Sequence record: PQ863254.1
Reading direction: 5' to 3' (one strand)
DNA: 43,020 nucleotides
Source of the DNA: Escherichia phage Ptacy1537
A model generated the notes under the pieces. The model did no database searches and was not told where the DNA came from. It saw only the letters and a program-made list of their open reading frames with translations. Position numbers and translations under genes: made by a program. This document shows, piece after piece, positions 3,150 through 42,453 of the stretch; the first letter of the stretch is position 1, and each line of letters starts with the position of its first letter.

Positions 3150-3511
3150 TTAAACTGGCCGTAGTCGGCGCTGTATTGGTCGCTATGGTTATCCCGTCAT
3201 TAGTCGGGTATCACTACTACGGTAAGGTGGCAGTGCTCAAGCAGAGCGTTAAAGACCTCACCGACGACCTCGTCCATACCCAGGATACACTGGAGGCCAC
3301 CCTTGAGGGTGAGCAGCGTGCTAACCTGGCTTTATCCGAGCTTCGCAAGAAGAAGGGCTTAACCGATGCTGAACTTCAAAGTGCAAAATCCGAGCTGGAG
3401 CGTATTCACCTTCGCAACCCAGGCAACAATTGTCCTGTATTGCCTGCTGTCGCTGACAGGCTGCGGGCAGCAAACGACCAAGTACGTAAGAGTGGCTCCC
3501 TACGTCCCTGA
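3128..3511 (+). CDS. Rz-like inner-membrane spanin (i-spanin)
   Basis: 127 aa. N-terminal transmembrane segment (LIKLAVVGAVLVAMVIPSLVGY) followed by a charged coiled-coil region. Overlaps the endolysin stop. Confidence 0.6.
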   Translation: MDSKSPLIKLAVVGAVLVAMVIPSLVGYHYYGKVAVLKQSVKDLTDDLVHTQDTLEATLEGEQRANLALSELRKKKGLTDAELQSAKSELERIHLRNPGNNCPVLPAVADRLRAANDQVRKSGSLRP

Positions 3512-3662
3512 GAGCCTCTATGACCCGTGCACTCCACCAGCCTTACCTGAGGGTGTACTTGACCAGTTAATCATTGAGCAGCACGTCCTGGACCTCTATG
3601 GGACCATCTCAGGCTGCAATGATGACAAGGCTGAAATCAAGAAGCTACTCAGCGGTAAATAG
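3366..3662 (+). CDS. Rz1-like outer-membrane lipoprotein spanin (o-spanin), overlapping Rz in the +1 frame
   Basis: ORF starts inside the Rz gene in another frame and runs past its stop. Hydrophobic signal ends in lipobox LSLTGC; the mature part is Pro-rich (PYVPESLYDPCTPPALPEG). Confidence 0.5.
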   Translation: MLNFKVQNPSWSVFTFATQATIVLYCLLSLTGCGQQTTKYVRVAPYVPESLYDPCTPPALPEGVLDQLIIEQHVLDLYGTISGCNDDKAEIKKLLSGK

Positions 3663-4927
3663 TTGCCCGTTACAGTGCACTCCTCTTCCCGACTGGTGAG
3701 TGTACTGTTGCGGCCCAATTATGGCATAAAATTGTATGACCGGAGCGACCCTCGCGACACCCCTCGCTTCCCCCATAGGCCCTCCGCTTTGCACCATCGT
3801 GGAGCATTGGGCCGCCTCCGGGCACCTGGGCCTGCACTGGCAGGGCCATCATGGGCACCTATCGTGTGAGCTCCTGTAACTCCCTGTGCGACACTGTAGG
3901 CCATCACCGCTACCTACGTATCACCGTCTGGCTAATCGCCAGCCGTAGGGCCGCATAGGGCCATCTATCAGCTACTGGTTATCATCACTACTGCCTTATC
4001 GTTTATCAGAGTCGGACAAGGTAGACTCAAGGGTTATCATAGTCGGTCTGTTTAGCAGAGTGAGTACCATCACTCAGAGATTATAGTGTAGCTGAGTCCT
4101 TACTATAGCCGGGGAGTGAACCAGTGTCAACCCTATCTTATGACTATCTCACTACTCATTGTGTCGGGAGTGTCCTATTGTGTTAGACACGCGCTTAGCG
4201 TGGCTGTGCCCTTCTCTGTGCTCTTCCTATCGTGTGACAAGGGTAAGCCCTATCTCATACCTATCGTGCACTCACATTGCTTTATAGCGGCTCTTATTGT
4301 GTGTACAGGGGCGGGCTATCTGTATCCCTGTTTGCCAGCTCATCACACTGTTAACACATACCGTCTAACCATAGGGATAACCTGAGTCATACCCTACCAG
4401 TGACCTATCATCACACCTATCAAGCTATACACTGTATCCATAGTCTAATCGCCTATGGTAAGCACATAGTGATTCTACCGTTGAATATAAACATATCACA
4501 GATAGTGAGTACCTATCTGTCCACTACTAGCTCCACTGTCTAATCGCCAGTGGCTAACGTCCTATTCGTAGTCCTCCGCTACGCTCCGTACATACTCACT
4601 TCTGATACAGATAGAGAGAATTGTAACATACGTTACTACCTACCTATCCCTACCTGTAAGGCCCATTGCTTCGTTCTGTGCTCATAGAGTATGACGAATC
4701 AAACAGCACAGAGCCTGCACTCACAGTGCCTTAAATATAATCCTATTGAATACATACACTTAGCAATTAATTCGAATTTATTTGCAAATAACGCTTGCGC
4801 TTTTAGTCGGCTATACCCTATCATTCAATCACACCGCAGCAATCAGGCGGCAAGCAGTAAGAAGTACCGCTCTTTAACAATATGGTCATAGTATAGTGTG
4901 TCCTCTCAGGAGTATAGGGGATGATAC
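3663..4927. other. Large non-coding region, probable physical genome-end / terminal region in a circularly opened assembly
   Basis: No credible ORF (only short, overlapping, hydrophobic or low-complexity ORFs). Visibly lower GC, many CCTATC-type short repeats and three CTAATCGCC hairpins. Lies between the lysis cassette and the early promoter, where T7-like genomes have their ends. Confidence 0.5.
3928..4553 (+). repeat. Three hairpins sharing a CTAATCGCC core with different complementary stems
   Basis: 3928-3942 CTGGC-TAATC-GCCAG; 4438-4458 CCATAG-TCTAATCGC-CTATGG; 4533-4553 CCACTG-TCTAATCGC-CAGTGG. Stems are perfect inverted repeats that differ in sequence while the loop core is kept. Confidence 0.6.
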
Positions 4928-5299
4928 ATGACACTAAGCAAAGTACAACAAGCCGCGAACAAACAGGCCCAACGGTTAGCCAAACAGGCAGCCCGACAGG
5001 CCCAGAGTACCACAGAGCGTGCCCGTGCTGTGGCCTTGTGCAAAGCTGGCTCCTCAAAGGCTGGCAAGGCGGAGGCCCGCAGGATGGAGCTTGGAAAGCT
5101 GGCGTATAGTAAGACGGTCGGCGGTATGAATTATGCGGTGGATGCACGCAAGCAGCGCAAGCAGGATAAGCCCGCCGCCGCGAAGTACACTAAGCAAACA
5201 GACTTTGGTACACGTACCGCTACCTACGGTAGCAAGACAGATGCAACGGTTAACAGTTACCGCCGGGCTAAATCAGGCGATAACCTGCCACGTAAATAG
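4928..5299 (+). CDS. Hypothetical basic low-complexity protein (doubtful gene)
   Basis: 123-aa K/R/A/Q-rich ORF upstream of the early promoter. Weak RBS. Could be spurious. Confidence 0.3.
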   Translation: MTLSKVQQAANKQAQRLAKQAARQAQSTTERARAVALCKAGSSKAGKAEARRMELGKLAYSKTVGGMNYAVDARKQRKQDKPAAAKYTKQTDFGTRTATYGSKTDATVNSYRRAKSGDNLPRK

Positions 5300-5312
5300 T
5301 TTAAATAAATGC

Positions 5313-5341
5313 TTGACATTAACGAGGATGCACCATACTAT
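5313..5341 (+). promoter_or_regulatory. Candidate host sigma70-type early promoter
   Basis: TTGACA (5313-5318), 17-nt spacer, TACTAT (5336-5341). Sits upstream of the early gene block on the coding strand. Confidence 0.45.
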
Positions 5342-5868
5342 GACCATACAGACAGCGGAGACCGACACGGCAAACAACGTTAGGTGAGTCTCCAATGTTT
5401 GGGCCTTGCACTCGCAAGCGCTTTTGTGAAAGAGACTTTGATGTACACATTGTGGAAGTACCCAGCACAGAGGAAACTCCGGTGATGGGAAGTGGAAGGT
5501 GCTTAAGTGCGATTGCCACGAGGAACCGCGATGGGGAAGCGTAGTATAGGGACGATAACCCTTTAAAGATATCAGGCCGGGTGAGATGGTAGGTCAGTTA
5601 TAAAATCCATCGATAATAGTGTTTGGCGAGCATTCCCTCCACCGAACGGGAGAAATCGCATCCAGCGTCACTGAGCGGGACAAGTCTCAAACGTATTGGA
5701 TTAACATCTGCTCCTGAGTAGGACGGGTAACGCGGTTAGCGCATGGTGACACTGTGAAGTGGTTCGATGCAATGCTTGACGCCTACCGACGCGAAAGGGA
5801 GCGGGTTAACATATGAGTATTCAATGGTGAGTATTCATACCTTTAACCAAACGATGAGGATTTACAAA

Positions 5869-8412: not shown

Positions 8413-8708
8413 ACCAGAACGCTGTAACTGTGGCGATGATGCTGTGGGGATACGTGGAGGCTGAGGTGCACTTCGTAGACAGCCACACCCCAGATGACCC
8501 TACAACATATGAGCTGGCCGGTATGGGTGCTGTCGAGGCCTGTGAAGCGGTGCGGCTGCTGGCCATCGAGCTGTATGACCGCTGGGATAAGCCCGACACT
8601 ATGGAGTGGGTGGACTTCCTGTACGTAACCCTGCCGGATGTGGCGCACATCATTGTGCAAGACTGCATCTTAGGCACGTTCCCAACTCTCGAGGCATTTG
8701 ACATATGA
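8409..8708 (+). CDS. Early hypothetical protein
   Basis: 99-aa acidic ORF, overlap-coupled to its neighbours. Confidence 0.5.
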   Translation: MNQNAVTVAMMLWGYVEAEVHFVDSHTPDDPTTYELAGMGAVEACEAVRLLAIELYDRWDKPDTMEWVDFLYVTLPDVAHIIVQDCILGTFPTLEAFDI

Positions 8709-9106
8709 AACTGAATAAAATGATGGTGCTGGTGTCGGCCGAGTGTTCCGACCTGTGCGACTCCGAGAACGCAGACCGCACCGCAGAGCTGCGACACTGG
8801 ATTGGCACCTCTTACCGCCACCGCTTCAGCTCAGCCCTCGGCAAGTACAACGGCAACACTGAGAACTCCTTCTTGATTCAGGTCGATGACTTCCGGGACA
8901 TCGGCTATATCTCAGACAAGGCCGCTGAGATGAATCAGGAATCCATTCTGATACTGGATGCCCGCGACAAGGCATTCCTGTATTACCCGGCGTCAAAATC
9001 ACTTGAGCCTATTGGGTTGATGCTGAGCTGCCCTATGTCGGCATTCAATGCTGCGCACCACACCGCGTACACAATCATCGGCGATACCGCCTATTATACT
9101 ATCTGA
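8705..9106 (+). CDS. Early hypothetical protein
   Basis: 133-aa ORF, overlap-coupled start. Confidence 0.5.
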   Translation: MKLNKMMVLVSAECSDLCDSENADRTAELRHWIGTSYRHRFSSALGKYNGNTENSFLIQVDDFRDIGYISDKAAEMNQESILILDARDKAFLYYPASKSLEPIGLMLSCPMSAFNAAHHTAYTIIGDTAYYTI

Positions 9107-11562: not shown

Positions 11563-12802
11563 TACGCTATTACTCGCCGTGCTGGCCAACCGTTCCAAGT
11601 ACAAGGCGTTGGCCAGCGCCGTACCGAAGGAGACACTCGGCGCACAGACCGGGTGGCTTCTGGATGCTTACGGCAAGTTCTTTGAGCAGAACAAGAAGAA
11701 GGAGCGTGTTGACTTTGACGTGCTCGCCACTATGGTGCGCCTCAAGCTGGATGAAACGGCGGCGGGGCCTGCACTCGCGCTAGTTGAAGCGGCGCGTAAT
11801 TCGAAGGCCAGTGAGGAGCAGGAAAAGCTGGTAATCGCGGAGCTGTACGAGCGCCGACTATCCGGCCTGGCTGCGTCACTGGTTAACCGCTATGAGGATG
11901 GTGATGATGTTGATATCTCATATGAACTTTATCGCGTCGCAATGGAAACACGGAAGCTCCTGGGTACTGCTACAGATGCTCTGTTCAAGGAGCCGGACAT
12001 CCATGAAATCCTGGCTGAGCAAGCGAGCGACACGGGTCTCAAGTTCCCGCTCCTCTGCCTACAGGAGCATGTCAAAGGACTCATGCCGCCCGTTAACGTG
12101 GCCCTGTGCGCCGGTGTCGATAGTGGGAAGACCAGCTTCATTGCCAGAACGGTGGTGCATTGGGCTCCGCAGTGCGCCAAACTATTCCCAGGACGTCCGA
12201 TTCTCTGGTTATCAAATGAGGGTGTGGTGCGTGAAATCTGGCCTCGCGTCTATGCGGCTGCTTTAGATAAGAACAGTCTCAAGATGGCAGAGCTATCCCG
12301 TGATGAGCTGTATGCTCAGTACGAGGCGGCGATGGGGGGCAACCGCTCTATCCTCAAGCTGCTGGACATTCACGGCTGGAGTATGGGTCAGGTGGCCGGG
12401 CTAGTTGAAGAGCTTAACCCCTGTGTCGTCATCCTGGACATGGTGGCTAACGTTCGATGCAGTAAGCCAGTAACGGCCCGCCACGAGATGATGGAGACCA
12501 ACCTCCAGGAGTGGCGTGAGATGCAGGCGCTGCACAACTTTATTGGCTTCTCAACTATCCAGCTGTCGGCAGACGGACTGGACCAGCTTTACCCGGCGAT
12601 GCATCACCTCAAGGATACCAAGATTGGGGCACAGGGTACGCTGGACCTCCAGATTATGATGGGCCGGTTGGATGACCCTCAGCAGCAAGGCCTGCGCGGA
12701 TTCTCTACGCCGAAGAACAAGCGTAAGAAAGTCGGCAAGCCGGGCAACTTTAACGCGCAGGTGTTCTTCACACCGGATACCTGTCACTATGAGGACGCAT
12801 AA
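11552..12802 (+). CDS. DnaB-like replicative DNA helicase (T7 gp4 helicase-domain-like)
   Basis: 416 aa. Walker A-like AGVDSGKTS and a RecA-like core. Position in the replication module. Confidence 0.65.
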   Translation: MAVDTLLLAVLANRSKYKALASAVPKETLGAQTGWLLDAYGKFFEQNKKKERVDFDVLATMVRLKLDETAAGPALALVEAARNSKASEEQEKLVIAELYERRLSGLAASLVNRYEDGDDVDISYELYRVAMETRKLLGTATDALFKEPDIHEILAEQASDTGLKFPLLCLQEHVKGLMPPVNVALCAGVDSGKTSFIARTVVHWAPQCAKLFPGRPILWLSNEGVVREIWPRVYAAALDKNSLKMAELSRDELYAQYEAAMGGNRSILKLLDIHGWSMGQVAGLVEELNPCVVILDMVANVRCSKPVTARHEMMETNLQEWREMQALHNFIGFSTIQLSADGLDQLYPAMHHLKDTKIGAQGTLDLQIMMGRLDDPQQQGLRGFSTPKNKRKKVGKPGNFNAQVFFTPDTCHYEDA

Positions 12803-13002
12803 TGGCGAAGCTGGGACCTGCTGCCCAGCGTTGCAATCAGCGGATGCTGTATATGTTCACCGGGCATGATGGTGGCGGCAGCTTCTGCGATTGGCGCTTC
12901 GGCATTATAGAGGCTGACCACCCTCCAGAGTTGGCGGAGGAGTTGGACAAGCTATTCCATAAACTTGACAAGTTACTTGAACACTGTGGAGCTGAGGCAT
13001 GA
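12802..13002 (+). CDS. Small hypothetical protein
   Basis: 66-aa ORF, overlap-coupled to its neighbours. Confidence 0.4.
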   Translation: MAKLGPAAQRCNQRMLYMFTGHDGGGSFCDWRFGIIEADHPPELAEELDKLFHKLDKLLEHCGAEA

Positions 13003-13178
13003 GTAAGAAATGTACCTGTGGGCGGGGCTATGTCTCCGCGTGGGACGGAGCGTGCGGTAACTGCCGACCGCGCAAGAAACAAAAGGCACACCTGTATGCC
13101 CTATTCAATCTTCCTGAGGGTCTTACGACGGAAGAGGCCAAGCAAGTCTATACGGATTTACGGAGACGCTGCAAATGA
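12999..13178 (+). CDS. Small zinc-ribbon protein (below the ORF-track size cutoff)
   Basis: Manual translation gives 59 aa (MSKKCTCGRGYVSAWDGACGNCRPRKK...) with CxC...CxxC. ATGA overlaps at both ends. Confidence 0.4.
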   Translation: MSKKCTCGRGYVSAWDGACGNCRPRKKQKAHLYALFNLPEGLTTEEAKQVYTDLRRRCK

Positions 13179-14134
13179 GTAAGTTAACGGTCCATAAGGG
13201 GATACCATACGAAGAGAAACGCCTCCGGCAATGGTTGGAGGAGGACGGTAAGGTAGTCCTCCAGATTAAGCGCGACGAGATTCGTTGCGTGGTGGAGATT
13301 CACCACAACGATGCGACGGAACCGCCATTCGTAACGTACACCAGTGCCAGCGGTAAACCGCTATACAATCTGAGCTGCTTCGACCAGCATTGGCTTGACT
13401 TCTCGGCACGCACTGGTAAGCGCAAGATTGACTGCGGCGTGGCCATCAATGACAGCTTCGACCTGACCCGGCGCACGGTGATGGCGAAGACCAAGCAGTA
13501 CGACCTATCTGGCAACACGGCCAACACCATTGCAGGCGAGAAGAAGAAAGACCTGCCGCACTACGTCGGCCCGCTGCGTGCGATGTTCTGGCTGTACGAC
13601 GTCATCGACCACTACGGTACGTATGCAGACCGCCGCCGGGATATGGCCAAGTATGCGCTGGACTTCCCCAAGTTTCTGGCGTGCCCGGAGACGTTCGTTA
13701 TTGAGTCGGGTAACTCTGATACCGTAATCCCTCAGTGTGAAATAGACCGGGCTGTCGCGGAGGTGGAGTCTCACTTCCAGCAGGCTCTGGACTGCAAGCA
13801 CGAAGGGTTAATGATTAAACGCTTCTACCACTTCTGGGAGCCCCGTCGCACCACGAACTGGATGAAGATGAAACCGGAGGCAGAAGTCGATGTTGAAATC
13901 ATCGGATATGTGGAAGGAAAAGGCGAGTTTGCTGGCCTGGTGGGAAGCCTTACCGGGCGTGCAGAGGACGGCAGCACAGTCGATTTTAGCGGGTTCACAC
14001 TTGAGCTTCGACGTGCCATCTCTGCGGATTTTGAAAGCTATCTGGGACGCTGGTGTGAGGTTCAATACATGCAGCGAGACGCCCAGGGCGGCTACCGCCA
14101 CCCGCGCTTCTTCCGCTTCCACCCGGATAAATAA
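13175..14134 (+). CDS. ATP-dependent DNA ligase (T7 gp1.3-like)
   Basis: 319 aa. Lysine motif region QIKRDEIR; HEGLMIKR and NWMKMKPE match the T7 ligase motifs EGLIVK and WWKMKPE. Confidence 0.8.
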   Translation: MSKLTVHKGIPYEEKRLRQWLEEDGKVVLQIKRDEIRCVVEIHHNDATEPPFVTYTSASGKPLYNLSCFDQHWLDFSARTGKRKIDCGVAINDSFDLTRRTVMAKTKQYDLSGNTANTIAGEKKKDLPHYVGPLRAMFWLYDVIDHYGTYADRRRDMAKYALDFPKFLACPETFVIESGNSDTVIPQCEIDRAVAEVESHFQQALDCKHEGLMIKRFYHFWEPRRTTNWMKMKPEAEVDVEIIGYVEGKGEFAGLVGSLTGRAEDGSTVDFSGFTLELRRAISADFESYLGRWCEVQYMQRDAQGGYRHPRFFRFHPDK

Positions 14135-14157
14135 GCAACAACTACTGGAGGACATCT

Positions 14158-14742
14158 ATGAATCCTGTCGTACTGAATACGTTGAAACGCACCCATCTGA
14201 ACCTGGTGACGCTTCTTGGCGTACCCGCGAGCCGTTTGTTTCTGGTGGGTGGCTGTGTCCGTGATTGCGCCGCCGGTGCACAGCCGAAGGACTATGACTG
14301 CGTGGTACTTAACGACGTTGTAGAGGCCTGGGATGACTGCACGTCCTTCGCAATGGCGGAGCGTATAGCCCGCCTGGCACGTGAACTAGGCGCTACGGTG
14401 GCTATCTACCAGGCATATGGTAACGCAGCAGGTGCGGATGCGCACGACCTAACCGGACGTACCCGCGACTTCGACGACAACATCTGGTGCGGTATCCACG
14501 TACAGTTCGGAGAGGATACGCCATACGATATCCTCCTGTCCCGACACCAGGATATCGACGATGTGCTGTACAGCTTCGACTGCAACTGGAATCAGCAGTA
14601 CATCGGAGATAAGATTCACCTTTACTGGCTCGGTAAGAACGAGCTGGTATTCACGGGTAAGCCTCTCCGGGAAGGTCGCGAGGAGTATATCCGCAACAAA
14701 TACAACGAGGTATTCAATGTCCTTAATAGCACTGGTTCATGA
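14158..14742 (+). CDS. Minimal Pol-beta-superfamily nucleotidyltransferase, CCA-adding-enzyme head-domain-like
   Basis: 194 aa. FLVGGCVRDCAAGAQPKDYDCVV closely parallels the class II tRNA nucleotidyltransferase signature (YLVGGAVRD...KDRDWVV). A downstream RTRDFDDNI resembles the RRDxTxN motif. Confidence 0.55.
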   Translation: MNPVVLNTLKRTHLNLVTLLGVPASRLFLVGGCVRDCAAGAQPKDYDCVVLNDVVEAWDDCTSFAMAERIARLARELGATVAIYQAYGNAAGADAHDLTGRTRDFDDNIWCGIHVQFGEDTPYDILLSRHQDIDDVLYSFDCNWNQQYIGDKIHLYWLGKNELVFTGKPLREGREEYIRNKYNEVFNVLNSTGS

Positions 14743-17242
14743 CGTAGAGACAGAAACGAACCCGTGGTACGGACACCTGGCCTCCCCGTATAACCCGCTT
14801 AACTATGTGGTAATGGATGCCTTCGAGCAAGTTACCTTTGGTGGCGGTAAGGTGAGAGTCAGCCCCCGAACCGAACAACGCTTCGCTTCTGTCGAAGACT
14901 TTAAGGCCCGCTGGCCCCAGCCGTTCCCTGACAATGTGAACATCTACGTAGCGCACAACGCCGCGTACGAGATGCAGTGGCAGCTGGAACATAACTTTGA
15001 TAACTTCGTAGCGTTCCTGAAACGGGGCGGAAGGGTGTACTGTACGGCGTATGCGCACTACTTGCTAAGCAACCAGCAGGACACGTACCCGCCGCTTAAC
15101 GAAGTCGCCCCACTGTACGGCGGTACGCAGAAGGTGGATGGCGTTAAGGCACTGTGGGACGCCGGGGTGCTTACCTCTGCGATTGACCCAGAGCTGCTGA
15201 GCGAATATCTGTCCGGCCCGAATGGTGATATCGACAACACCACCCGCGTATTCCTGGGCACCTGGAACCAGCTGGTCGAACGAAACATGCTGACGATGGC
15301 GCTGGTGCGTATGGATAGCCTGCTGTATCTGGCATTCTGTATGCACTTCGGGTTGAAGGTTGACGAGGATAAGGCCCACCGCCTACAGGCGGAGAACGAG
15401 GCCGCACTCGCAGACCTTAACAAGCAGCTTTATGAATACCTGCCTTCGGATATGCCGGAAGAAGCCCGCGAGCAATTCAAGGGCACACGCTTCCAGCTTT
15501 CAGCATTCCTGTTCGGCGGCGCAATGAAGTACGAGAGTCAGGTGCCCCGCACCGATTCGACTACTGGCGAGCTGATTTACAAGAAGGCCGAAGGTCCGGT
15601 GTTCAAGTGGCTCAAGGAAACATACGTCAAAGACCCGGCGCTCTGTGAGTTCGACGAAGAGGCTGGCGGTCTGTGGTATGACCCTGAGCGCAAGGTGCAC
15701 CAGGTTCGGTACACGGCAGGTAAGAACAAGGGACAACCCAAGTTCGACAAGTACGTGACCGACGAGGTTGACACCAAGAAAGGCGAGCTGATTTACCAGT
15801 TCCGGGGTATGATTCAGGGCGCTGTGCGGGATAAGCTGCGAGATGCTATCGAGACCGAATGGGCGGGCAGTCAGAAGCTGGCCGACGGCACACCGGTAGT
15901 CTCCACCGCAGGCGACGTGCTGGAAGTCCTGGCTGCCCACGATGTCCCGGTGGCCAAGCTGCTGGACCTAATCGGCAAGATTGAGAAGGACCTGGGTGCG
16001 TTCTACCTGGTGCAGACGTTCAACAAGGATGGCTCCCTGAAGAAGCAATCAGGGATGCTTCAGTACGTGCAAGAGGATGGCTTCATCCACCACACGCTGA
16101 ACACCACATCCACGGTTACGGCCCGCCTGTCTTCTAACAAGCCGAACATGCAGCAGATACCCCGAGCTGAAGAGGCCAAGCCTGGTGACTTTAAGTCAAA
16201 GGTTAAGAGCATCTTCATATCCCGGTTTGGTGCTGACGGCGGCATACTCCAGGAGGACTACAGCGCACTGGAGACGGTTGGCCAGCAGGTAATGACTGGC
16301 GACCAGAACCTCAAAGAGGCGCTGATTAAAGGCCTGGACATGCACTCAATGCGTCTGGCTGCAATGGAGGAGTTGACGTATGAGTACGTCGTCGCCCGAA
16401 CGAAAGATGGTGCTCATCCTGAGCACGCCGAGTGGGATGTCAAGCGAACTGGTATTAAGCCTGTTGCGTTCCAGTATCAGTACGGAGCCACGTCTTACGG
16501 TATGGCCATGTCCACCGGTAAATCGCAGGACTTCTGTCAGGCGTTTATCGACGCCGAGAAGAAGGCGTTCCCAGGGGTAGAGAGCTGGTACGATAACGTG
16601 GTTTACCCGGCGGTTGAGCAGTCCTCGTTGAAGCGTAAGCCAACACGGGTACAGACAGAGGATGGCCAGTACCGACTGTACCGCACAGGGGTATTCATCG
16701 CTCCGTCTGGCACTACGTATCAATTCCAGCAGTACACCAAGCTGCGCTGGGACCCGGAGAGCCGCACTCGCAAAGAGTTCTCTGAGTTCAAAGTCCCGCA
16801 AATGCGTAACTACCCAATCCAGGGTGAGTCCGGCTTCTTCGTACAGCTGGGCTGCGGTATGCTGATTCGACACTTCATTGCCCGCGACTTCTACGGAATG
16901 AAGGCGCTGCCGATTAACACAGTGCACGATGCTAACTACTTCGACGTTCACAGAGACGTAGTGCAGCAGGTAGCCTGTGAGGTGGAAGTAATCATGGAGT
17001 CAATCCCTGAGATGCTGAACCACCTGTGGCCAGCGTACAATGTCGAAGTGCCATTCCCGGTAGCGGGTGGTTACGGCGACAGTATGGCCGAGGAGAACCC
17101 TGTGTTCTCCAGCAAGAGTAAGAAGGAAGAGCCGGAAGGCTTTAAGGCTGACAAGGCCGCCTGGGTGGTACGGAAGAATCAGTTTAAGACTGACTATCTG
17201 GCCGCTAAGAATATCCAAGTTAAATTCCCATGCACTCAATAA
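14717..17242 (+). CDS. DNA polymerase, family A (T7 gp5-like) with 3'-5' exonuclease domain
   Basis: Start taken at ATG 14717 (MSLIALVHDVETE, exo I-like DxE). Pol A motif A DYSALE. 841 aa. The ORF-track start at 14561 overlaps the upstream gene. Confidence 0.85.
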   Translation: MSLIALVHDVETETNPWYGHLASPYNPLNYVVMDAFEQVTFGGGKVRVSPRTEQRFASVEDFKARWPQPFPDNVNIYVAHNAAYEMQWQLEHNFDNFVAFLKRGGRVYCTAYAHYLLSNQQDTYPPLNEVAPLYGGTQKVDGVKALWDAGVLTSAIDPELLSEYLSGPNGDIDNTTRVFLGTWNQLVERNMLTMALVRMDSLLYLAFCMHFGLKVDEDKAHRLQAENEAALADLNKQLYEYLPSDMPEEAREQFKGTRFQLSAFLFGGAMKYESQVPRTDSTTGELIYKKAEGPVFKWLKETYVKDPALCEFDEEAGGLWYDPERKVHQVRYTAGKNKGQPKFDKYVTDEVDTKKGELIYQFRGMIQGAVRDKLRDAIETEWAGSQKLADGTPVVSTAGDVLEVLAAHDVPVAKLLDLIGKIEKDLGAFYLVQTFNKDGSLKKQSGMLQYVQEDGFIHHTLNTTSTVTARLSSNKPNMQQIPRAEEAKPGDFKSKVKSIFISRFGADGGILQEDYSALETVGQQVMTGDQNLKEALIKGLDMHSMRLAAMEELTYEYVVARTKDGAHPEHAEWDVKRTGIKPVAFQYQYGATSYGMAMSTGKSQDFCQAFIDAEKKAFPGVESWYDNVVYPAVEQSSLKRKPTRVQTEDGQYRLYRTGVFIAPSGTTYQFQQYTKLRWDPESRTRKEFSEFKVPQMRNYPIQGESGFFVQLGCGMLIRHFIARDFYGMKALPINTVHDANYFDVHRDVVQQVACEVEVIMESIPEMLNHLWPAYNVEVPFPVAGGYGDSMAEENPVFSSKSKKEEPEGFKADKAAWVVRKNQFKTDYLAAKNIQVKFPCTQ

Positions 17243-17253
17243 GGTAAATATAA

Positions 17254-18084
17254 ATGACTACTGATACTCAACTGTCCCGCGCCCAACAAATCGCTGCCCG
17301 TGCCGCCGCCGCCGTAGACCGTCATGGCGACCAGAACGAAGTCGTAGCGGGCGGTGGCGGTAACTACACCCCGCCACCGGCTGGTAAAGCTAAGGCGCGT
17401 CTGGTTGGTTACTTTGAGACTGGCCCGCAGAAGAACAAGAACTACCCGGACAAACCGGCGCAGAACTCGTTCATCCTGCAATTTGCACTGTACGGCGAGG
17501 GTTATGCCCGTGAAGACGGCAAGCCGATGACCATCGAAACCCGTAAGTTCGCCGTCGGCCGTGGTGAGAAGTCCAACGCAGTTAAAATCTTCCGCCAGCT
17601 GTGCCCTACCAAAGACGTGCAGCACTTCCTGGGGCTGCTGGGCCGTGCATTCTGGGTTGTCATTGAGCACAACACCCAGCCAGCTAAGGAAGCTGGTAAA
17701 CCGGATGTGGTATTCGCCAACATCAAAGAGAGCGAGCTGAAGCCTGCTCTGCGCGACGTGTTCGATGATGACGATAACCTGATTGGCCAGCGCGAAGTAG
17801 CGGTGCCGGAAGCCACCGACGACCAGTTCAAGGTCTTCGAGTGGGACGTACCGAGCAAGGAAGACTTCGACAGTCTGTCTGGTAAATACCAGAAGATTAT
17901 CCGTAGCTCTGAAGGCTTCGCACAGTCCGCCCTGTTCGCACTGGTAGGCGCGGGCAACCCGGCCACCACCGATGCCCCGGACGAAGGACCGGAGCCGCAG
18001 GATAGTGAAGACGAGCCACAGACCCCGCAGACCCCGGTGACTGACACCCCGGTAGCGGACGCTGGCGCACTGCCGTCGCTGTAA
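17254..18084 (+). CDS. Hypothetical protein with acidic Pro-rich C-terminal tail (possible ssDNA-binding or polymerase accessory protein)
   Basis: 276 aa. C-terminus DAPDEGPEPQDSEDEPQTPQTP. Lies between the polymerase and exonuclease genes. Function inferred from position only. Confidence 0.5.
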   Translation: MTTDTQLSRAQQIAARAAAAVDRHGDQNEVVAGGGGNYTPPPAGKAKARLVGYFETGPQKNKNYPDKPAQNSFILQFALYGEGYAREDGKPMTIETRKFAVGRGEKSNAVKIFRQLCPTKDVQHFLGLLGRAFWVVIEHNTQPAKEAGKPDVVFANIKESELKPALRDVFDDDDNLIGQREVAVPEATDDQFKVFEWDVPSKEDFDSLSGKYQKIIRSSEGFAQSALFALVGAGNPATTDAPDEGPEPQDSEDEPQTPQTPVTDTPVADAGALPSL

Positions 18085-19599: not shown

Positions 19600-20032
19600 A
19601 CTTACCCGCGCCCAGCAGGTAGCCTGGGCGAAGCAGGAGCTGAGCAACGGGCGCGGTTGTCCGTTGTGTCTCCGTAGCTGGCAGACGATTATCGCAGAAG
19701 CTGAACAGCGCGGCAGTCGGCAAGCCCCTTACGTTGTGGACCACGACCACATTACCGGCGAAGTACGTGGCCTCCTGTGTCGTGGCTGTAACGGGGCCGA
19801 GGGAAAGGTAACAAACGCCGTAGCCGCCTGGGGTAAGACCGGGCACGATTACGCTAAGATTCTGGCCTGGCTTGACCGCATGGTTAAGTATCTTAAGGGT
19901 CCCGGCAAGGGTGTTATGTATTCGACGCACGTGCTGGCCGAAGACAAAGCACGCAAGGCAGCAGACCGCCGTAAGGAGCAGGCACAGGCCCGCGCTAAAG
20001 CACGACGTCAACAAATTCAACGAGGTAAGTAA
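19592..20032 (+). CDS. Endonuclease VII-like (His-Me finger) DNA junction-resolving nuclease
   Basis: Start at ATG 19592. CPLC...VVDHDHITGEVRGLLCRGCNGAEG matches the Cys4 zinc / HxH-N pattern of T4 gp49-type endonuclease VII. Basic C-terminal tail. Confidence 0.6.
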   Translation: MHKLTRAQQVAWAKQELSNGRGCPLCLRSWQTIIAEAEQRGSRQAPYVVDHDHITGEVRGLLCRGCNGAEGKVTNAVAAWGKTGHDYAKILAWLDRMVKYLKGPGKGVMYSTHVLAEDKARKAADRRKEQAQARAKARRQQIQRGK

Positions 20033-21066
20033 TGGCTAAGGTAACACTTCGCAATCTATTCACCAAAGAGCAACACACTTTAATCCTGGGCCGCTTTCTG
20101 GATAACGTAACCGCGTCAGACGCATATAACGTGACCGCAGCCTACGGGGAAGTACCTACCTTCAAAGAGCTGGCCGAGTTCACTAAGACTCTGGGCGAGG
20201 CAGAGCAACTGGTATCGCGGCAGCTGGTTCGATTCTGGCGTCAAATCTTTATCGACCACGACGGCAGCCGGGCCAAGACCACTCGCGACATTATCAGCGA
20301 ACGTAAGCTGATTCAGCCCAGCCCCTCCGATGATGTGGGTGAGACGACTGTTCCGAAGGTGGCCCGCCGTATCATGACCATTGGCGATACCCATGCGCCG
20401 TATACCCATCCCGACGCATTGGCCTTCCTGGAGAGCCTGAAGGTTAGCTACAACCCGGATGTCGTTGTCCATATGGGTGATGAGACTGACGGGCATGCAA
20501 TCAGCTTCCACGACAGCGACCCTAACCTGGACAGTGCTGGTGTAGAGTTGGAGAAGGCTAAGACCTGGTTGGAGAAACTCCATGATATATTCCCGGAATT
20601 GTTGGTGTGTGACTCCAATCATGGTTCACTCATTTATCGCCGTGCAAAGGCTCACGGTCTTCCTATCCAGTTCATCAAGAAGTATCGCGATATTTTGTTC
20701 CCAGCACACGGGGCACCGGGCTGGTCCTGGGCTGACGCATGGGTACTTGATACACCGCTCGGTGTTGTGCGTTTCCAGCATCAAGTCTCTGGTGACTTCA
20801 TGCTTAATGCCTCACACGAACGTACCAGCCTGGTCCTGGGCCATGAGCACGGCCGCTTTGAAGTCCAGTATGCAGCTTCAAGCACTGCCCTTTACTTTGG
20901 GGCATACGCGGGATGTCTTATCGACAGAAAGAGCATGGCGTTCGCCTACGGCAAGTTGACGCGTAAGAAGCCAATCCTGGGTTGCTTGGTCATTACCGAC
21001 GGCGCTCCTCAGTTAATCCCAATGCTCCTGGACGACGATGGTCGCTGGGTAGGGCGTAAGAAATGA
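20032..21066 (+). CDS. Calcineurin-like metallophosphoesterase
   Basis: 344 aa. Motifs GDTHAP (D-x-H), HMGDETDGH (GDxxD) and CDSNHGS (GNH-like) in the canonical order. Confidence 0.65.
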   Translation: MAKVTLRNLFTKEQHTLILGRFLDNVTASDAYNVTAAYGEVPTFKELAEFTKTLGEAEQLVSRQLVRFWRQIFIDHDGSRAKTTRDIISERKLIQPSPSDDVGETTVPKVARRIMTIGDTHAPYTHPDALAFLESLKVSYNPDVVVHMGDETDGHAISFHDSDPNLDSAGVELEKAKTWLEKLHDIFPELLVCDSNHGSLIYRRAKAHGLPIQFIKKYRDILFPAHGAPGWSWADAWVLDTPLGVVRFQHQVSGDFMLNASHERTSLVLGHEHGRFEVQYAASSTALYFGAYAGCLIDRKSMAFAYGKLTRKKPILGCLVITDGAPQLIPMLLDDDGRWVGRKK

Positions 21067-21560
21067 ACCGTAAGACGGTAATCGTATGGGACCTAGACGG
21101 CACGCTGCGGGACGGTAAGCACCGTCTCCACCTTCTCCCGACAGGCGACTATAGCAATCCTGATAGTTGGTTGCCCTTTAACATGGCGTGTGGTGGTGAT
21201 TCTCCAATCTGGGACAACATAGAACTTCTTAGAAGCCAGGCGATGGCCGGATATCACATCGTACTTCTAACGTTCTGCGACGACCGTGCTATGCAGACTA
21301 CTAAGGAGTGGCTGGCACGCCATTACATACCGTACAACCGACTTATCATGAGGGACATAGATGGTGGTCGGGATGTAGACTTTAAGGAGCAGCGCCTGCG
21401 CTCTATAGGCGTCAACAATATACTGTGTATGTTCGACGACTCAGAGCATGTAGTAAAGCACGTGCGGCGGATGGGTATAACCTGTCACCAAGTAACCCAC
21501 TACGAAGAGAGTGAGAAACACGCACACCTTAAAAGCAGCGAGGAGCTGAGCAATGAGTAA
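21063..21560 (+). CDS. HAD-family phosphatase resembling the 3'-phosphatase domain of T4 polynucleotide kinase
   Basis: 165 aa. N-terminal VIVWDLDGTL (DxDGT). MAGYHIVLLT and C-terminal FDDSEHVVKHVRRMGITCHQV parallel the remembered T4 Pnk phosphatase sequence. 4-nt overlap with the upstream gene. Confidence 0.6.
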   Translation: MNRKTVIVWDLDGTLRDGKHRLHLLPTGDYSNPDSWLPFNMACGGDSPIWDNIELLRSQAMAGYHIVLLTFCDDRAMQTTKEWLARHYIPYNRLIMRDIDGGRDVDFKEQRLRSIGVNNILCMFDDSEHVVKHVRRMGITCHQVTHYEESEKHAHLKSSEELSNE

Positions 21561-22128
21561 GACGAAGGACATTATCATCCTGAACGGGCCGCCAGGCAGC
21601 GGTAAGGATGCCGTGTGCCGCGAGTTCGTGAAGTTATGCGGCGCGGAGCATCTTGAGGTTAAGGCGCGACTATTTGACCTGGCACTGTCAATTAGTGGAC
21701 TGGACCCTAAAGTGTGGTGGGGGCTGTATAATAATCGGGAGACTAAGGAGAAGCCGTCACCTCTCTTTGGTGGACTTTCCCCACGTGGGTTCATGATTTA
21801 CATCAGCGAGCAAGTTATGAAACCCCTGTTTGGGGGTGACTACTTCGGCAAATACGCAGCTACATCGGCCGCATCCAGCCCTAAAGGATGTGTAATATTC
21901 ACGGACGGTGGATTCCGGGAGGAGGTTAAACTTCTCGCAGAGGTTGGAAATGTGCACCTTGTGCATCTCTACCGGGACGGGTACTCCTTCGACGGCGACA
22001 GCCGAAGCTATCTATCACCGGACGAACCATTCCTGTCCACCTACCTGCGTATCGACCAGGTAGAGGGCGAGCTGGGGTATGCTGTTGGGCAGCTGAAATC
22101 CCACATGCTTGAGTGGTGGCTTAAATGA
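21553..22128 (+). CDS. P-loop kinase (polynucleotide 5'-kinase or dNMP kinase-like)
   Basis: 191 aa. Walker A GPPGSGKD near the N-terminus. 8-nt overlap with the phosphatase gene. Confidence 0.6.
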   Translation: MSKTKDIIILNGPPGSGKDAVCREFVKLCGAEHLEVKARLFDLALSISGLDPKVWWGLYNNRETKEKPSPLFGGLSPRGFMIYISEQVMKPLFGGDYFGKYAATSAASSPKGCVIFTDGGFREEVKLLAEVGNVHLVHLYRDGYSFDGDSRSYLSPDEPFLSTYLRIDQVEGELGYAVGQLKSHMLEWWLK

Positions 22129-39424: not shown

Positions 39425-41680
39425 ATGGACAAGTCTACCCTTGAATGGATGACGTCGGATTCTACAGAACCAGATTACCTTACTATGGTTACGTACACTG
39501 CCGACGGCACTACGGACCAATACGAGTTTAACTTCCCAGGTGGCTACCTGAACAAGGCGGACATTAAAGCGTACATGTTCGACCCAGCAGGCGTTGTCCG
39601 TACGGACCTTACTGTAGCGTTCATTGCTGACAACATTGTTAAGCTGACCCCGGAACAGGCGGCCGGTAACTTAGTCACCATCTACCGCGACACTCCAAAA
39701 GAGCTGCCGCTGGTTAGCTTTACCGACGGCGCTATGATTGAGGCTCGCAACCTTGACCGTAACGCAAAGCAGTGTATCTTCGCCGTCGCTGAAATCCTGG
39801 ACAAGTACAATATCGTGTACAGCCAGGTAGAGCTGGCGGAGCGATATGCAACTATTGCCCGAGACGCGGCGGATACCGCAACAACCCAGGCCGAGTTCGT
39901 CGCCTACATTTACGAGCGGTTTAAGATTACCGACGAGATGATGGCGGAGATTAACCGTGCACGTGATGACGCGCAGTTTGCAGCAGGCCGGTCCGAGCAG
40001 GCCCAAGACGCCGCTGAGCGTGCGCGTGATGCAACGGAAGCTCTGGCCACAAGTGCTGGAATCTTCCAGTCTATTGCAGCGGGCCTTGCAGGCACCTCCA
40101 CCGGCCAATACTTCACGGTAGGGCAGGGTGTGGATTCCGAGACGGCTGCCATCACGTACCTGAACGACAACGGTACGGCTGTGCCTGTATTCAAGACGGC
40201 GGGTACTCAGGCGTATGTAAACCTGAATAAGAGGTTTATGGACGTATTCCTGGAAGGCACCTACGGTAACGCACTCGCCGGTTTCGTGGATGACGAGGAC
40301 AACTCGCCGCTGTTTATCGACGACAAGGGCGAGGTCGTAATCAATGACATCAACTTCCTGAAACAGGTGCAGGACATCATTAACGAATTGGTAGCAATTC
40401 GTAACGTGTTCATCTCTGAATCAGACAGCTACATCCAGAAGGGTGGATTCATGGATGATGAAGGCAAGCTGCCTATCTACTTCGACGAGAAGGGTGATGT
40501 GTGGCTGGGAGATGGCCCGGTTAACCTGACTCAGTTCGTAAAAGAGGGCGACCCCGTTCTGGCTAACCGCGTGCTGGCTTTAGAAACTCAGTATGCACGC
40601 CTGAATGATAAGTTCTTCGAGGCGGATTCAGACTACAGCCAGGTAGCAGGCTTCGTTGATGATGAAGGCAAGCTGCCCCTGTATGTGGACAAGTTTGGTG
40701 ATGTTTGGATTGGCGCAGGTCCGGTTAACCTTAGCGAGTTCGTTAAGAGCGGCGGCGGCATTCCTTCTGAAGAGTTCACTGCATTGAAGGCGCAGGTGGC
40801 CAACCACGAGCGTGCCATCTATGGAACGGGCAACATCGTCTGCGAAGGCGATTCCCTGACTGCCGGTGCCGGTGCGGTATCCCGTACTGGTTATGTAGAG
40901 CGCCTTCGTGCCCGCCTACAGTCCCAGGGCATTGTGGTGACTAAGCGTGCAGTCGGAGGCACGGGCTCTGCATCCATCGCAACCCGACAGGGTGGTTATG
41001 TTAACCTGCTGACGCTGGAGAATAACAGCATCCCAGCTGCCCGCGTCCCGGTTAATATCCTGTCCAGTACGCAAACACCAATCACCAACCAAGGCGGTGG
41101 CCCTATCAAGGGTACTATAATGGGTATTCCTGGTGTAGTTGCTGCTACCTTCTCGGGAACTGAGCGTACCTCCTACACCTTCACTCGCGACGTGGCAGGC
41201 ACCGTGGCCACCTACGTGGACCCGGAGACCCCGTTCATCAAACAGCGGGATGGTATGGAGGGCGACATCGCTATCCTGTGGCCGGGCCGCAACGACACAT
41301 GGCGCACCGATATGGGTGACGAGGTAATGAATGCGGTTGACGCGATGGTGGCTCACCTGGTATCCCAGCGTAAGCAGTTCGTCGTAATGTCCGTGCTCAA
41401 CGGTGAGTATGTTAACGAGTACAAAGGCGGGCCAGTATACGACCGCATCCTGGGCTATAACAACCGCCTCAAGTATAAGTACCCGGAGCAGTATTGCGAG
41501 ATTCGTAATGTCCTGGTACGTGCATACGACCCAAGCAAACCGCAGGACGTGCTAGACTTCCAGCATGATATCCCACCAGCCAGCCTGCGTGCGGACGGCA
41601 TTCACCTGCTGGACCCTGGCTACGACATCGTTGAAGAGACTGTGTATACCCATCTCAAGAACAGAGGATTAGTTAAATAA
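39425..41680 (+). CDS. Tail fibre protein: T7 gp17-like N-terminal adaptor domain, three internal repeats, C-terminal SGNH/GDSL hydrolase domain
   Basis: N-terminus (LVSFTDGAMIEARNLD) parallels T7 gp17 (LVDFTDGSILRAYDLN). Three 68-aa repeats (GF(V/M)DDEGKLP...GDVW(I/L)G.GPVNL..FVK). C-terminal IVCEGDSLTAGAG ... DGIHL matches the SGNH esterase catalytic Ser block and Asp-x-x-His block. Confidence 0.75.
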   Translation: MDKSTLEWMTSDSTEPDYLTMVTYTADGTTDQYEFNFPGGYLNKADIKAYMFDPAGVVRTDLTVAFIADNIVKLTPEQAAGNLVTIYRDTPKELPLVSFTDGAMIEARNLDRNAKQCIFAVAEILDKYNIVYSQVELAERYATIARDAADTATTQAEFVAYIYERFKITDEMMAEINRARDDAQFAAGRSEQAQDAAERARDATEALATSAGIFQSIAAGLAGTSTGQYFTVGQGVDSETAAITYLNDNGTAVPVFKTAGTQAYVNLNKRFMDVFLEGTYGNALAGFVDDEDNSPLFIDDKGEVVINDINFLKQVQDIINELVAIRNVFISESDSYIQKGGFMDDEGKLPIYFDEKGDVWLGDGPVNLTQFVKEGDPVLANRVLALETQYARLNDKFFEADSDYSQVAGFVDDEGKLPLYVDKFGDVWIGAGPVNLSEFVKSGGGIPSEEFTALKAQVANHERAIYGTGNIVCEGDSLTAGAGAVSRTGYVERLRARLQSQGIVVTKRAVGGTGSASIATRQGGYVNLLTLENNSIPAARVPVNILSSTQTPITNQGGGPIKGTIMGIPGVVAATFSGTERTSYTFTRDVAGTVATYVDPETPFIKQRDGMEGDIAILWPGRNDTWRTDMGDEVMNAVDAMVAHLVSQRKQFVVMSVLNGEYVNEYKGGPVYDRILGYNNRLKYKYPEQYCEIRNVLVRAYDPSKPQDVLDFQHDIPPASLRADGIHLLDPGYDIVEETVYTHLKNRGLVK

Positions 41681-42453
41681 TGGGCAATTTCATCAAGATT
41701 GGCACCACCCTGACCAACCCGAACATCACCAAGCTGACTCGGGATTCACTCATTGATGCCAACACCGTATTTATTGCGGACCTGAGCCGCAAGGCATCCA
41801 ACCCGGCGCAGGTGGACCTGTCCAACGGCAATCTTCTGTATAACCTGACTAACGGTGGCCTAAACGCCACCACCATCACGGGCACTAAGATTCCGTTCTC
41901 TGCGGCGGGTAAATATCTCACCAAAGAGGTTGGCGATATCTCGTCCCGTATCCAGCTGCCGGACACCTGTAAGGTGCTCGCTACCGACAACAGCTTCCAG
42001 TTTACCCTGTGGTTTACTGAGCTGGCCGGACAGGATACTACGGGCTCTCAGGGTCTGGCAGGATACGCATCAAACTCCAGCAACCAGATGGCCTTCGCGT
42101 TCTACTGGTTCGATGGCCAGTATTTCCTGGGTTGTGCGGGGAACCGGCACCCAATCGCAACACCTGCTGTAGGCGCAGTAAGCCAGTTGACGGTGGCCTG
42201 TGACCGTAATCTGGGAATCCGTAAGTATTACTACAACGGGGCCCTAGTGCGTTCTGAGACCAATCAGGTTATCAATGATATGCCTATTCCGGTAGCTGGT
42301 TCTAACCCGTGGCTGTTCTACCTGGGCGGTGGCTTCAACTCCCGCCGCAACGTTAAGCTGCACCGTGTATGGTTGGATGTAAACGGCCCCGGCGATAACT
42401 TTGACGCCAAAGTAGTTCGCGACTGGAACGAGAACAAACTTAAATTCGTATAA
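41680..42453 (+). CDS. Hypothetical tail-associated protein (possible lectin-like or receptor-binding accessory protein)
   Basis: 257-aa ORF, TAATG-coupled to the tail fibre gene. Composition suggests a beta-rich fold. No firm domain call. Confidence 0.5.
   Translation: MGNFIKIGTTLTNPNITKLTRDSLIDANTVFIADLSRKASNPAQVDLSNGNLLYNLTNGGLNATTITGTKIPFSAAGKYLTKEVGDISSRIQLPDTCKVLATDNSFQFTLWFTELAGQDTTGSQGLAGYASNSSNQMAFAFYWFDGQYFLGCAGNRHPIATPAVGAVSQLTVACDRNLGIRKYYYNGALVRSETNQVINDMPIPVAGSNPWLFYLGGGFNSRRNVKLHRVWLDVNGPGDNFDAKVVRDWNENKLKFV

Follow-up and report, generated by a model that had tools for sequence, protein, structure and literature searches.

Class II nucleotidyltransferases are the closest well-described relatives of the gene considered here, which encodes a 194-aa nucleotidyltransferase (NTase) at positions 14158-14742 (+ strand) of the sequence of Escherichia phage Ptacy1537 (PQ863254.1). 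The whole stretch of 43,020 nt is referred to below as the window; it is the complete, circularly permuted genome (~43 kb) of a Klebsiella phage of the Autographiviridae, subfamily Melnykvirinae. The relatives comprise the CCA-adding enzymes (Escherichia coli Cca; Thermotoga maritima, 3H37/3H3A; human TRNT1, 4X4W), poly(A) polymerase I (PAP I, PcnB; 3AQK-3AQN) and the split CC-adding and A-adding enzymes of Aquifex and relatives (3WFO-3WFR, 1VFG, 4WBY-4WC6), which are specific for tRNA and have complete neck, body and tail domains. In class II enzymes a beta-turn with a glycine positions the primer 3' end, and a flexible loop between the third-carboxylate strand and motif B governs the ordered switch from C to A and is needed for terminal A addition. 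The loss of small head elements reportedly alters which nucleotides are added, for which the CC- and A-adding enzymes are said to be the precedent (Neuenfeldt et al. 2008).

Two groups of phage enzymes also invite comparison. MNT-like phage NTases make cyclic dinucleotides against TIR-STING (Ho et al., bioRxiv 2022); like the NTase of the window they are small, accessory, phage-encoded Pol-beta enzymes, but the counter-defence role is theirs and they carry a different signature, GS-x-AY[GAN]T-x4-SDxD. The second group is phrog_1614, with members such as Klebsiella SU503 gp20, Yersinia fHe-Yen3-01 gp25, Proteus PM16 gp16, Pectobacterium PP1 gp18 and Pseudomonas LKD16. The gene is thus already known, being annotated in dozens of GenBank phage records, having its own PHROG and having been discussed in print: Evseev et al. 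2020 (PMC7693777) gave a section to this putative tRNA nucleotidyltransferase, left its role open, and counted the gene in 37 of 46 Pectobacterium Autographiviridae and in 60 of more than 500 others, that is, in ~97 of ~550 Autographiviridae. The NTase shares with this family its size range, its invariant residues and its site in the DNA-metabolism module, and BFVD models of members match it with template modelling (TM) scores of 0.5-0.76. Nothing essential separates the two; the gene lies upstream of the polymerase as in other Melnykvirinae.

We found that the homology of the NTase to the heads of CCA-adding enzymes and of the poly(A) polymerases is real. The catalytic chemistry is almost certainly retained in its residues, and what class II enzymes use to recognise sugar, base and tRNA, judged in the same way, is not. 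Our reading, which we put a little short of probable, is that the NTase would be an active template-independent transferase of nucleoside monophosphate (NMP), with an RNA 3' end as the likeliest acceptor and a host-dependent benefit.

Homology and fold

On its own the NTase matches Pfam PF01743 (PolyA_pol; profile length 126, gathering threshold 23 bits) with E=2.6e-4 and 21.8 bits, over motif A only (profile positions 1-25). The match recurs at E<=0.01 in 71 of 78 close family members, and two of five members scanned singly pass the gathering score, one of them over positions 3-116 of 126. The hidden Markov model of phrog_1614, labelled 'nucleotidyltransferase', gives E=2.7e-27 and 97 bits over NTase residues 11-184 and profile positions 21-189 of 268. 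Searched against PDB sequences, a profile of 78 homologues finds human TRNT1 (E=1.2e-5), E. coli PAP I (E=2.7e-5) and other class II enzymes. In HHalign, a family profile of 214 sequences was compared with a class II head-plus-neck alignment built from E. coli Cca, E. coli PAP I and class II repeats, and the two match with a probability of 98.7% and E=3.3e-16 over residues 12-182 of the phage NTase and 1-155 of E. coli Cca. Because of the PolyA_pol, TRNT1 and class II profile-profile matches, the motif is not a chance match.

The AlphaFold2 model, made from the 78-sequence alignment, is confident (predicted local distance difference test 82.9; predicted TM-score 0.80). When it was compared with the PDB by Foldseek, the 33 best matches were all class II CCA-, CC- or A-adding enzymes or PAP I, with the split enzymes of Aquifex and relatives among the top ones, followed by TUT4 and TENT5, which are likewise RNA 3'-end transferases. 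The TM-scores on the query are modest (0.35-0.48), because only the head superposes. No DNA-specific NTase occurs among the PDB fold matches, and no CD-NTase, MNT or KNT (kanamycin NTase) among the 50 best. Likewise, the MNT-like family is absent from the Pfam matches of the NTase and from its 50 best folds. Pfam DUF6932 is matched weakly (E=0.12), and no PADLOC defence-system profile is matched at E<=10. The Pol-beta superfamily, to which the preliminary description had assigned the protein, was therefore recovered by both profile and structure searches. Since the nearest sequence and fold neighbours are all template-independent RNA 3'-end transferases, we favour an RNA 3' end as the acceptor.

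A small enzyme of this superfamily could also act on something other than nucleic acid. It might counter host defence by producing a small nucleotide, as a decoy or as a signal that competes, or by nucleotidylylating host proteins, for instance a toxin or an immune effector. The NTase is small and acidic and has no nucleic-acid-binding domain, it is an accessory gene that evolves faster than the core genes, and there are precedents in the MNT-like cyclic-dinucleotide NTases that block TIR-STING and in the predicted NTase Gad2, which acts against Gabija. However, the MNT-like precedents carry another catalytic motif (GS...SDxD), both these and Gad2 are different families, the closest sequence and structure neighbours all work on RNA 3' ends, PADLOC gave no match, and the beta-turn glycine of class II is retained as G159 in 179 of the 214 family sequences. 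We regard a non-nucleic-acid substrate as unlikely.

The catalytic head and its missing parts

The elements that could be placed on the protein are the following.

14236..14307, + strand: motif A, residues 27-50, LFLVGGCVRDCAAGAQPKDYDCVV; strand, GG turn, helix and strand with metal ligands D45 and D47

14524..14541, + strand: strand YDILLS, residues 123-128, with the third catalytic carboxylate D124 (conservation, model and HHalign)

14572..14595, + strand: degenerate motif B, residues 139-146, SFDCNWNQ against class II RRDxTINA (HHalign)

14665..14715, + strand: C-terminal helix, residues ~170-186, corresponding to motif D and the first helix of the neck in class II (model and HHalign)

The motif quoted in the preliminary description, FLVGGCVRDCAAGAQPKDYDCVV, does form residues 28-50 of the 194-aa product, and it aligns to motif A of E. 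coli PAP I and human TRNT1. The reading of it as a class II head motif with a two-Asp metal site holds, D45 and D47 being present on alignment, and a third carboxylate, D124, can be added. HHalign pairs the strand of D124 with the strand EEYALA of the class II enzyme E. coli Cca, and visual comparison shows a resemblance to EVATFR of E. coli PAP I as well. Among the 214 family sequences G31, G32, D45 and D47 are invariant; D36 is conserved in 209, D141, N145 and R174 in 207 each, D124 in 204, Y87 in 194 and K44 in 186. The Pol-beta signature is found as the hG[GS] turn (G31-G32), the DxD (D45/D47) and the third carboxylate (D124), with 95-100% conservation. The predicted order of elements (helix, strand, GG turn and helix, DxD strand, helix, three strands with the third carboxylate on the last, short helix, beta-hairpin and one C-terminal helix) fits a Pol-beta NTase head. 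The NTase retains the full five-stranded catalytic head, including the two-metal site of D45, D47 and D124.

Common to it and the CCA-adding enzymes are the Pol-beta head, GGxVRD...DxD, a third carboxylate, the two motif B residues D and N, the glycine of the beta-turn and a single arginine in the motif D helix. It differs from them in being about half the size and in the parts that it has lost. In motif B (YSFDCNWN against RRDxxxN) D141 and N145 are retained and both arginines, which in class II enzymes contact the NTP and its ribose, are gone. Of motif D (EDxxR, in class II the amino-acid template for C and A) R174 alone is retained (K181 in most close members), and the ED is absent: the family alignment has no conserved E or D three to four residues before R174, in a helix (residues 174-186 in the model) that HHalign aligns to EDPLRVLRVARF with low confidence in the register. 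The distance from D124 to D141 is 17 residues against 35 in E. coli Cca, with an HHalign gap of ~15 columns, so that ~18 residues are lacking; the flexible loop for terminal A addition reportedly lies in the segment shortened here (Neuenfeldt et al. 2008). The protein stops after one neck helix, at about residue 155 of the 412 aa of E. coli Cca, and motif E, the remaining neck, the body and the tail, domains with which class II enzymes bind the acceptor and T-arm of tRNA, are missing. The preliminary description, which had a head without neck and body, was correct in that the body, the tail and most of the neck are gone, and needs changing in that the first neck helix is retained. Without these domains the NTase has no known way to hold a tRNA or to template C, C and A. 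By defining motifs and domains it is not a bona fide CCA-adding enzyme, although the chemistry is probably shared.

The same features invite comparison with poly(A) polymerase. As a sub-case of RNA tailing apart from tRNA repair, the NTase might be a poly(A) or oligo(N) polymerase that tags host RNA for decay and so feeds nucleotide salvage. The head of PAP I is as good a match in sequence and fold as those of the CCA-adding enzymes, the flexible-loop segment is missing by sequence position, and the nucleotide-metabolism module also has a phosphoesterase, a HAD phosphatase and an NMP-kinase-like protein. On the other hand, the processivity of PAP I needs basic C-terminal regions (the isoelectric point, pI, of E. 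coli PAP I is 9.7); PAP I is a basic protein with neck, body and such a region, whereas the NTase is acidic and has none of them. We consider a tailing enzyme of this kind rather improbable.

Distribution of the family

The preliminary description knew of no T7-like replication module in which a gene of this type is usual. The notion that such modules normally lack it is wrong: homologues of the phrog_1614 family were found by tblastn in 130 phage records, in several subfamilies of the Autographiviridae, which also answers its question about orthologs in related phages. The hosts are Klebsiella (54), Aeromonas (24), Pectobacterium (20) and Proteus (10), and further Vibrio, Erwinia, Escherichia (Vectrevirus), Yersinia and Providencia. 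Most of these records are labelled nucleotidyltransferase, tRNA nucleotidyltransferase or poly(A) polymerase (head domain). The nearest relatives are 75-87% identical to the NTase, and those at 75-79% are already annotated. BFVD fold matches add Pseudomonas LKD16 and phiNV3, Pantoea LIMEzero, Ralstonia phiAp1, Acinetobacter fBenAci002, Caulobacter Cd1 and Dickeya Ninurta.

In an exhaustive HMMER search of 1.84 billion cluster representatives, the cut-off E<=1e-3 was passed by 1474 of them and the stricter E<=1e-10 by 120; towards the weak end of the 1474 there may be full-length class II enzymes matched through motif A only. Almost all of the best 150 of the 1474 are 165-230 aa long, and the minimal architecture is therefore the norm of the family. 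Close homologues come from contigs that typically measure 42-46 kb. When the family motif was used to scan 185,579 bacterial and archaeal species genomes, no homologue turned up, the pattern being narrow, so that absence is not proven. The family is large and has so far been found only in phages.

The longer members (P0152, P0157, P0147 and others) have no recognisable extra Pfam domain. Two metagenomic proteins, P0137 (1455 aa) and P0159 (1347 aa), were considered as informative domain fusions and rejected, as they are tandem arrays that matched the family only through motif A. They have an unusual architecture in their own right, with four tandem full-length units like class II CCA-adding enzymes and with degenerate catalytic or RRD motifs in some copies. 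Five family proteins (P0021, P0029, P0033, P0044 and P0068) carry a precomputed label, PF26128.2, that could not be identified; PF26128 appeared neither in a local Pfam scan of two of the five nor in the literature searched, and may have entered Pfam recently as a family for this phage NTase group.

Genomic context and selection

The gene and its neighbours are arranged as follows.

13175..14134, + strand: ATP-dependent DNA ligase, upstream neighbour (Pfam and phrog_114)

14147..14151, + strand: Shine-Dalgarno sequence GGAGG, 6 nt before the NTase ATG (direct reading of the sequence)

14158..14742, + strand: coding sequence of the NTase, head-only class II type, phrog_1614 family, 194 aa (open reading frame (ORF), phrog_1614, AlphaFold2 and HHalign)

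14717..14742, + strand: 26-nt overlap of the NTase 3' end and the polymerase 5' end, in different frames (sequence; annotation of KYP, GP-4 and P3)

14717..17242, + strand: family A DNA polymerase, downstream neighbour, 841 aa with the start corrected (N-terminal alignment and annotation of relatives)

The ORF and its product, the placement between ligase and polymerase, and the overlap of 26 nt were all given in the preliminary description and were confirmed here by ORF calling and translation, by domain matches and by the start codon. The ligase matches Pfam DNA_ligase_OB_2 and DNA_ligase_A_M, and phrog_114 with E=5e-60. In the program list of ORFs the polymerase begins at 14561. From the sequence, however, the true start is the ATG at 14717, because GAGG precedes it (14705-14708, the spacing being given as six nt) and because the polymerases of GAP227, fHe-Yen3-01 and Atoyac14 have N-termini to which MSLIALVHDVETETNPWYG can be aligned; the overlap with the NTase gene is therefore 26 nt, and an identical overlap is annotated in the relatives KYP, GP-4 and P3. 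The polymerase of K59PH2 (14973-17717) is annotated from an upstream in-frame start, which gives a 245-nt overlap. This is probably a misannotated start codon, since the N-terminal alignment and the three other records favour the shorter start. A consensus scan found no sigma-70 promoter consensus and no convincing terminator between the three genes. Over the 4.3-kb region of ligase, NTase and polymerase the DNA is ~91% identical to phage KYP and 87-90% identical to Y10, GP-4, 6937, K59PH2 and P3.

Across phages the gene lies zero to two genes from the DNA polymerase in 14 of 14 loci with a detectable polymerase. It is upstream of the polymerase in Melnykvirinae (ligase, NTase, polymerase) and downstream in Drulisvirus, Novosibovirus and Maculvirus; in Eracentumvirus S2 and Axomammavirus PP1, by record annotation, it is also downstream, at a distance of one to two genes. 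Its place in Fri1-like phages is after the exonuclease. In Maculvirus a gene labelled 'nucleotide modification associated domain-containing protein' stands between polymerase and NTase (Vibrio phage vB_VpP_HA5, locus L007, 3414-3992). Cronobacter phage GAP227, of the same subfamily as the window, has the polymerase 65 nt after the ligase and no NTase.

In order to assess constraint, the genes were compared with those of four close relatives. Protein identity is 75-79% for the NTase against 96-99% for helicase, polymerase and RNA polymerase and 97% for the exonuclease. The non-synonymous rate (dN) is 0.14-0.17 for the NTase and 0.014-0.022 for the polymerase, the synonymous rate (dS) 0.70-0.83 and 0.36-0.41, and dN/dS 0.17-0.22 for the NTase and 0.02-0.07 for core genes; the NTase evolves about sevenfold faster than the polymerase. 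With these dN/dS values the gene is under purifying selection and far less constrained than the replication machinery. Because GAP227 lacks it, because its identity is lower than that of the core genes and because of the patchy counts in the literature, it is an accessory gene, dispensable for the replication machinery.

These results bear on a role in replication. The NTase might add untemplated nucleotides to DNA 3' ends, at nicks or on primase products, together with the adjacent ligase and polymerase, and its constant proximity to the polymerase, the 26-nt overlap and the lack of an own promoter or terminator by consensus scan would be in keeping with such a helper; the loss of the motif B arginines might also relax the discrimination between ribo- and deoxyribonucleotides. 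However, the gene is dispensable in the sibling GAP227, whose replication module is the same in all other respects, the replication enzymes are far better conserved than the NTase, in Fri1-like phages the gene is not beside the polymerase, and the fold matches held no DNA-specific NTase. We find this role improbable.

The protein could also be a remnant without catalytic activity, serving a structural or regulatory purpose or none, but this is hardly credible. The truncation is extreme compared with any characterised class II enzyme, but the metal ligands and NTP-site (nucleoside triphosphate) residues are invariant across 214 diverged sequences, dN/dS is ~0.2 and the architecture of 165-230 aa is stable among the cluster representatives. 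It is because of these invariant residues and the low dN/dS that we take the enzyme to be active.

The acceptor and the benefit

Put together, our reading of the NTase is that of an accessory gene in a ligase-NTase-polymerase string, encoding a head-only derivative of class II NTases. The protein would act as an Mg2+-dependent, template-independent transferase that moves NMP from NTP onto a 3'-OH. The acceptor would most probably be an RNA 3' end, in tRNA tail repair or in RNA tailing; the specificity would be relaxed or supplied by a partner, and the advantage would lie in host-dependent fitness or in counter-defence and not in core DNA replication. Several immune effectors and toxins, among them Cas12a3, toxSAS and MenT, are reported to act on the tRNA 3' tail. 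They make a role in tail repair plausible.

Several points weigh against this reading. The NTase has no class II element for binding tRNA or for templating C, C and A. The acidic head and neck regions of class II enzymes are not known to bind RNA by themselves. The pI of the NTase is 4.9, that of E. coli Cca residues 1-150 is 5.5 and the family median is 5.0-5.4; acidity as an argument against work on RNA was dropped, because that E. coli head is just as acidic. The host already has a full Cca, and the phage genome encodes no tRNA genes. As both motif B arginines are lost, sugar and base specificity would not be fixed, and the conserved site beside the DNA polymerase could mean a DNA-related role. 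In the literature searched we found no biochemical or genetic study of any family member.

A bolder version of our reading is that, in function, the head-only proteins form a novel type of enzyme derived from class II, which would repair or tail RNA 3' ends against immunity directed at tRNA tails, or would use a non-RNA acceptor. We hold this to be doubtful. If the acceptor is RNA, the enzyme would be dependent on a partner or independent of the tRNA body, possibly within an end-repair kit with a PNKP-type 3'-phosphatase, a metallophosphoesterase and the ligase.

Candidate end-repair genes and other loci

The two candidate genes that were characterised for such a kit are adjacent, the first overlapping the next by 8 nt.

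21063-21560, + strand: HAD phosphatase of PNKP type, stand-alone, 165 aa (HAD_PNKP, E=8.6e-13; phrog_415, E=2.5e-51)

21553-22128, + strand: P-loop kinase, 191 aa (phrog_139 dNMP kinase, E=1.8e-39)

The HAD phosphatase also matches the Pnkp1 phosphatase domain in the PDB (E=3.6e-5) and is labelled 'HAD hydrolase' or 'polynucleotide 5' kinase/3' phosphatase' in relatives; it is a podophage 3'-phosphatase without a fused kinase. A 7-sequence profile of the P-loop kinase found adenylate and cytidylate kinases, through the P-loop only, and no polynucleotide kinases. The end-repair kit of NTase, PNKP-type HAD phosphatase, P-loop kinase, metallophosphoesterase and ligase was rejected as unsupported, the kinase profile being NMP-kinase-like only. 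The kit is further weakened in that the phosphoesterase is present in GAP227, which lacks the NTase, and absent from NTase-positive Vibrio phages, and in that, of the 25 phage loci with the NTase that were compared, only 5 had a HAD protein that could be detected. In the loci compared we found no evidence of a functional link between the NTase and the phosphoesterase, HAD or kinase genes.

The block of metallophosphoesterase, HAD phosphatase and kinase (20032-22128, + strand) has saturated dS, from 1.3 to more than 2.7 against the four relatives, while the flanking exonuclease and RNA polymerase genes have dS of 0.2-0.5; it looks like a mosaic block from a more distant lineage. In the region 39425-42453 (+ strand) the relatives match only the N-terminal 40-50% of the tail fibre (751 aa), with 44-63% identity, and the 257-aa gene that follows has no homologue in the four closest relatives. 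This is probably a swap of receptor-binding or depolymerase parts that sets capsule specificity. A 133-aa early protein (8705-9106, + strand; phrog_2226) is called 'SAM-dependent methyltransferase' in K59PH2 and P3 and 'SAM hydrolase' in GP-4 (SAM, S-adenosylmethionine); from its size and position an anti-restriction SAM-degrading enzyme seems likelier than a methyltransferase. Between helicase and ligase (12802-13178, + strand) there are two small genes of 66 and 59 aa, each present in one of the four close relatives, and this is a variable slot in the replication operon. The ~2 kb at 3511-5767 have few ORFs, one of which, of 123 aa (4928-5299; phrog_9286), is absent from the four relatives; by analogy with GP-4, which has 584-bp repeats, this stretch probably holds the terminal repeat and the early promoter region.

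Implications

Identifying the substrate of the NTase would define the minimal functional unit of class II nucleotidyltransferases, and if the family is indeed a new kind of enzyme, it would count as the smallest class II NTase that works and as a new mechanism of counter-defence. Podophages of Klebsiella, Acinetobacter, Pseudomonas and Pectobacterium used in phage therapy and biocontrol commonly carry the gene, and there an effect on host range would have practical value. The substrate might also show how phages respond to defences directed at tRNA 3' tails, a list that is growing.

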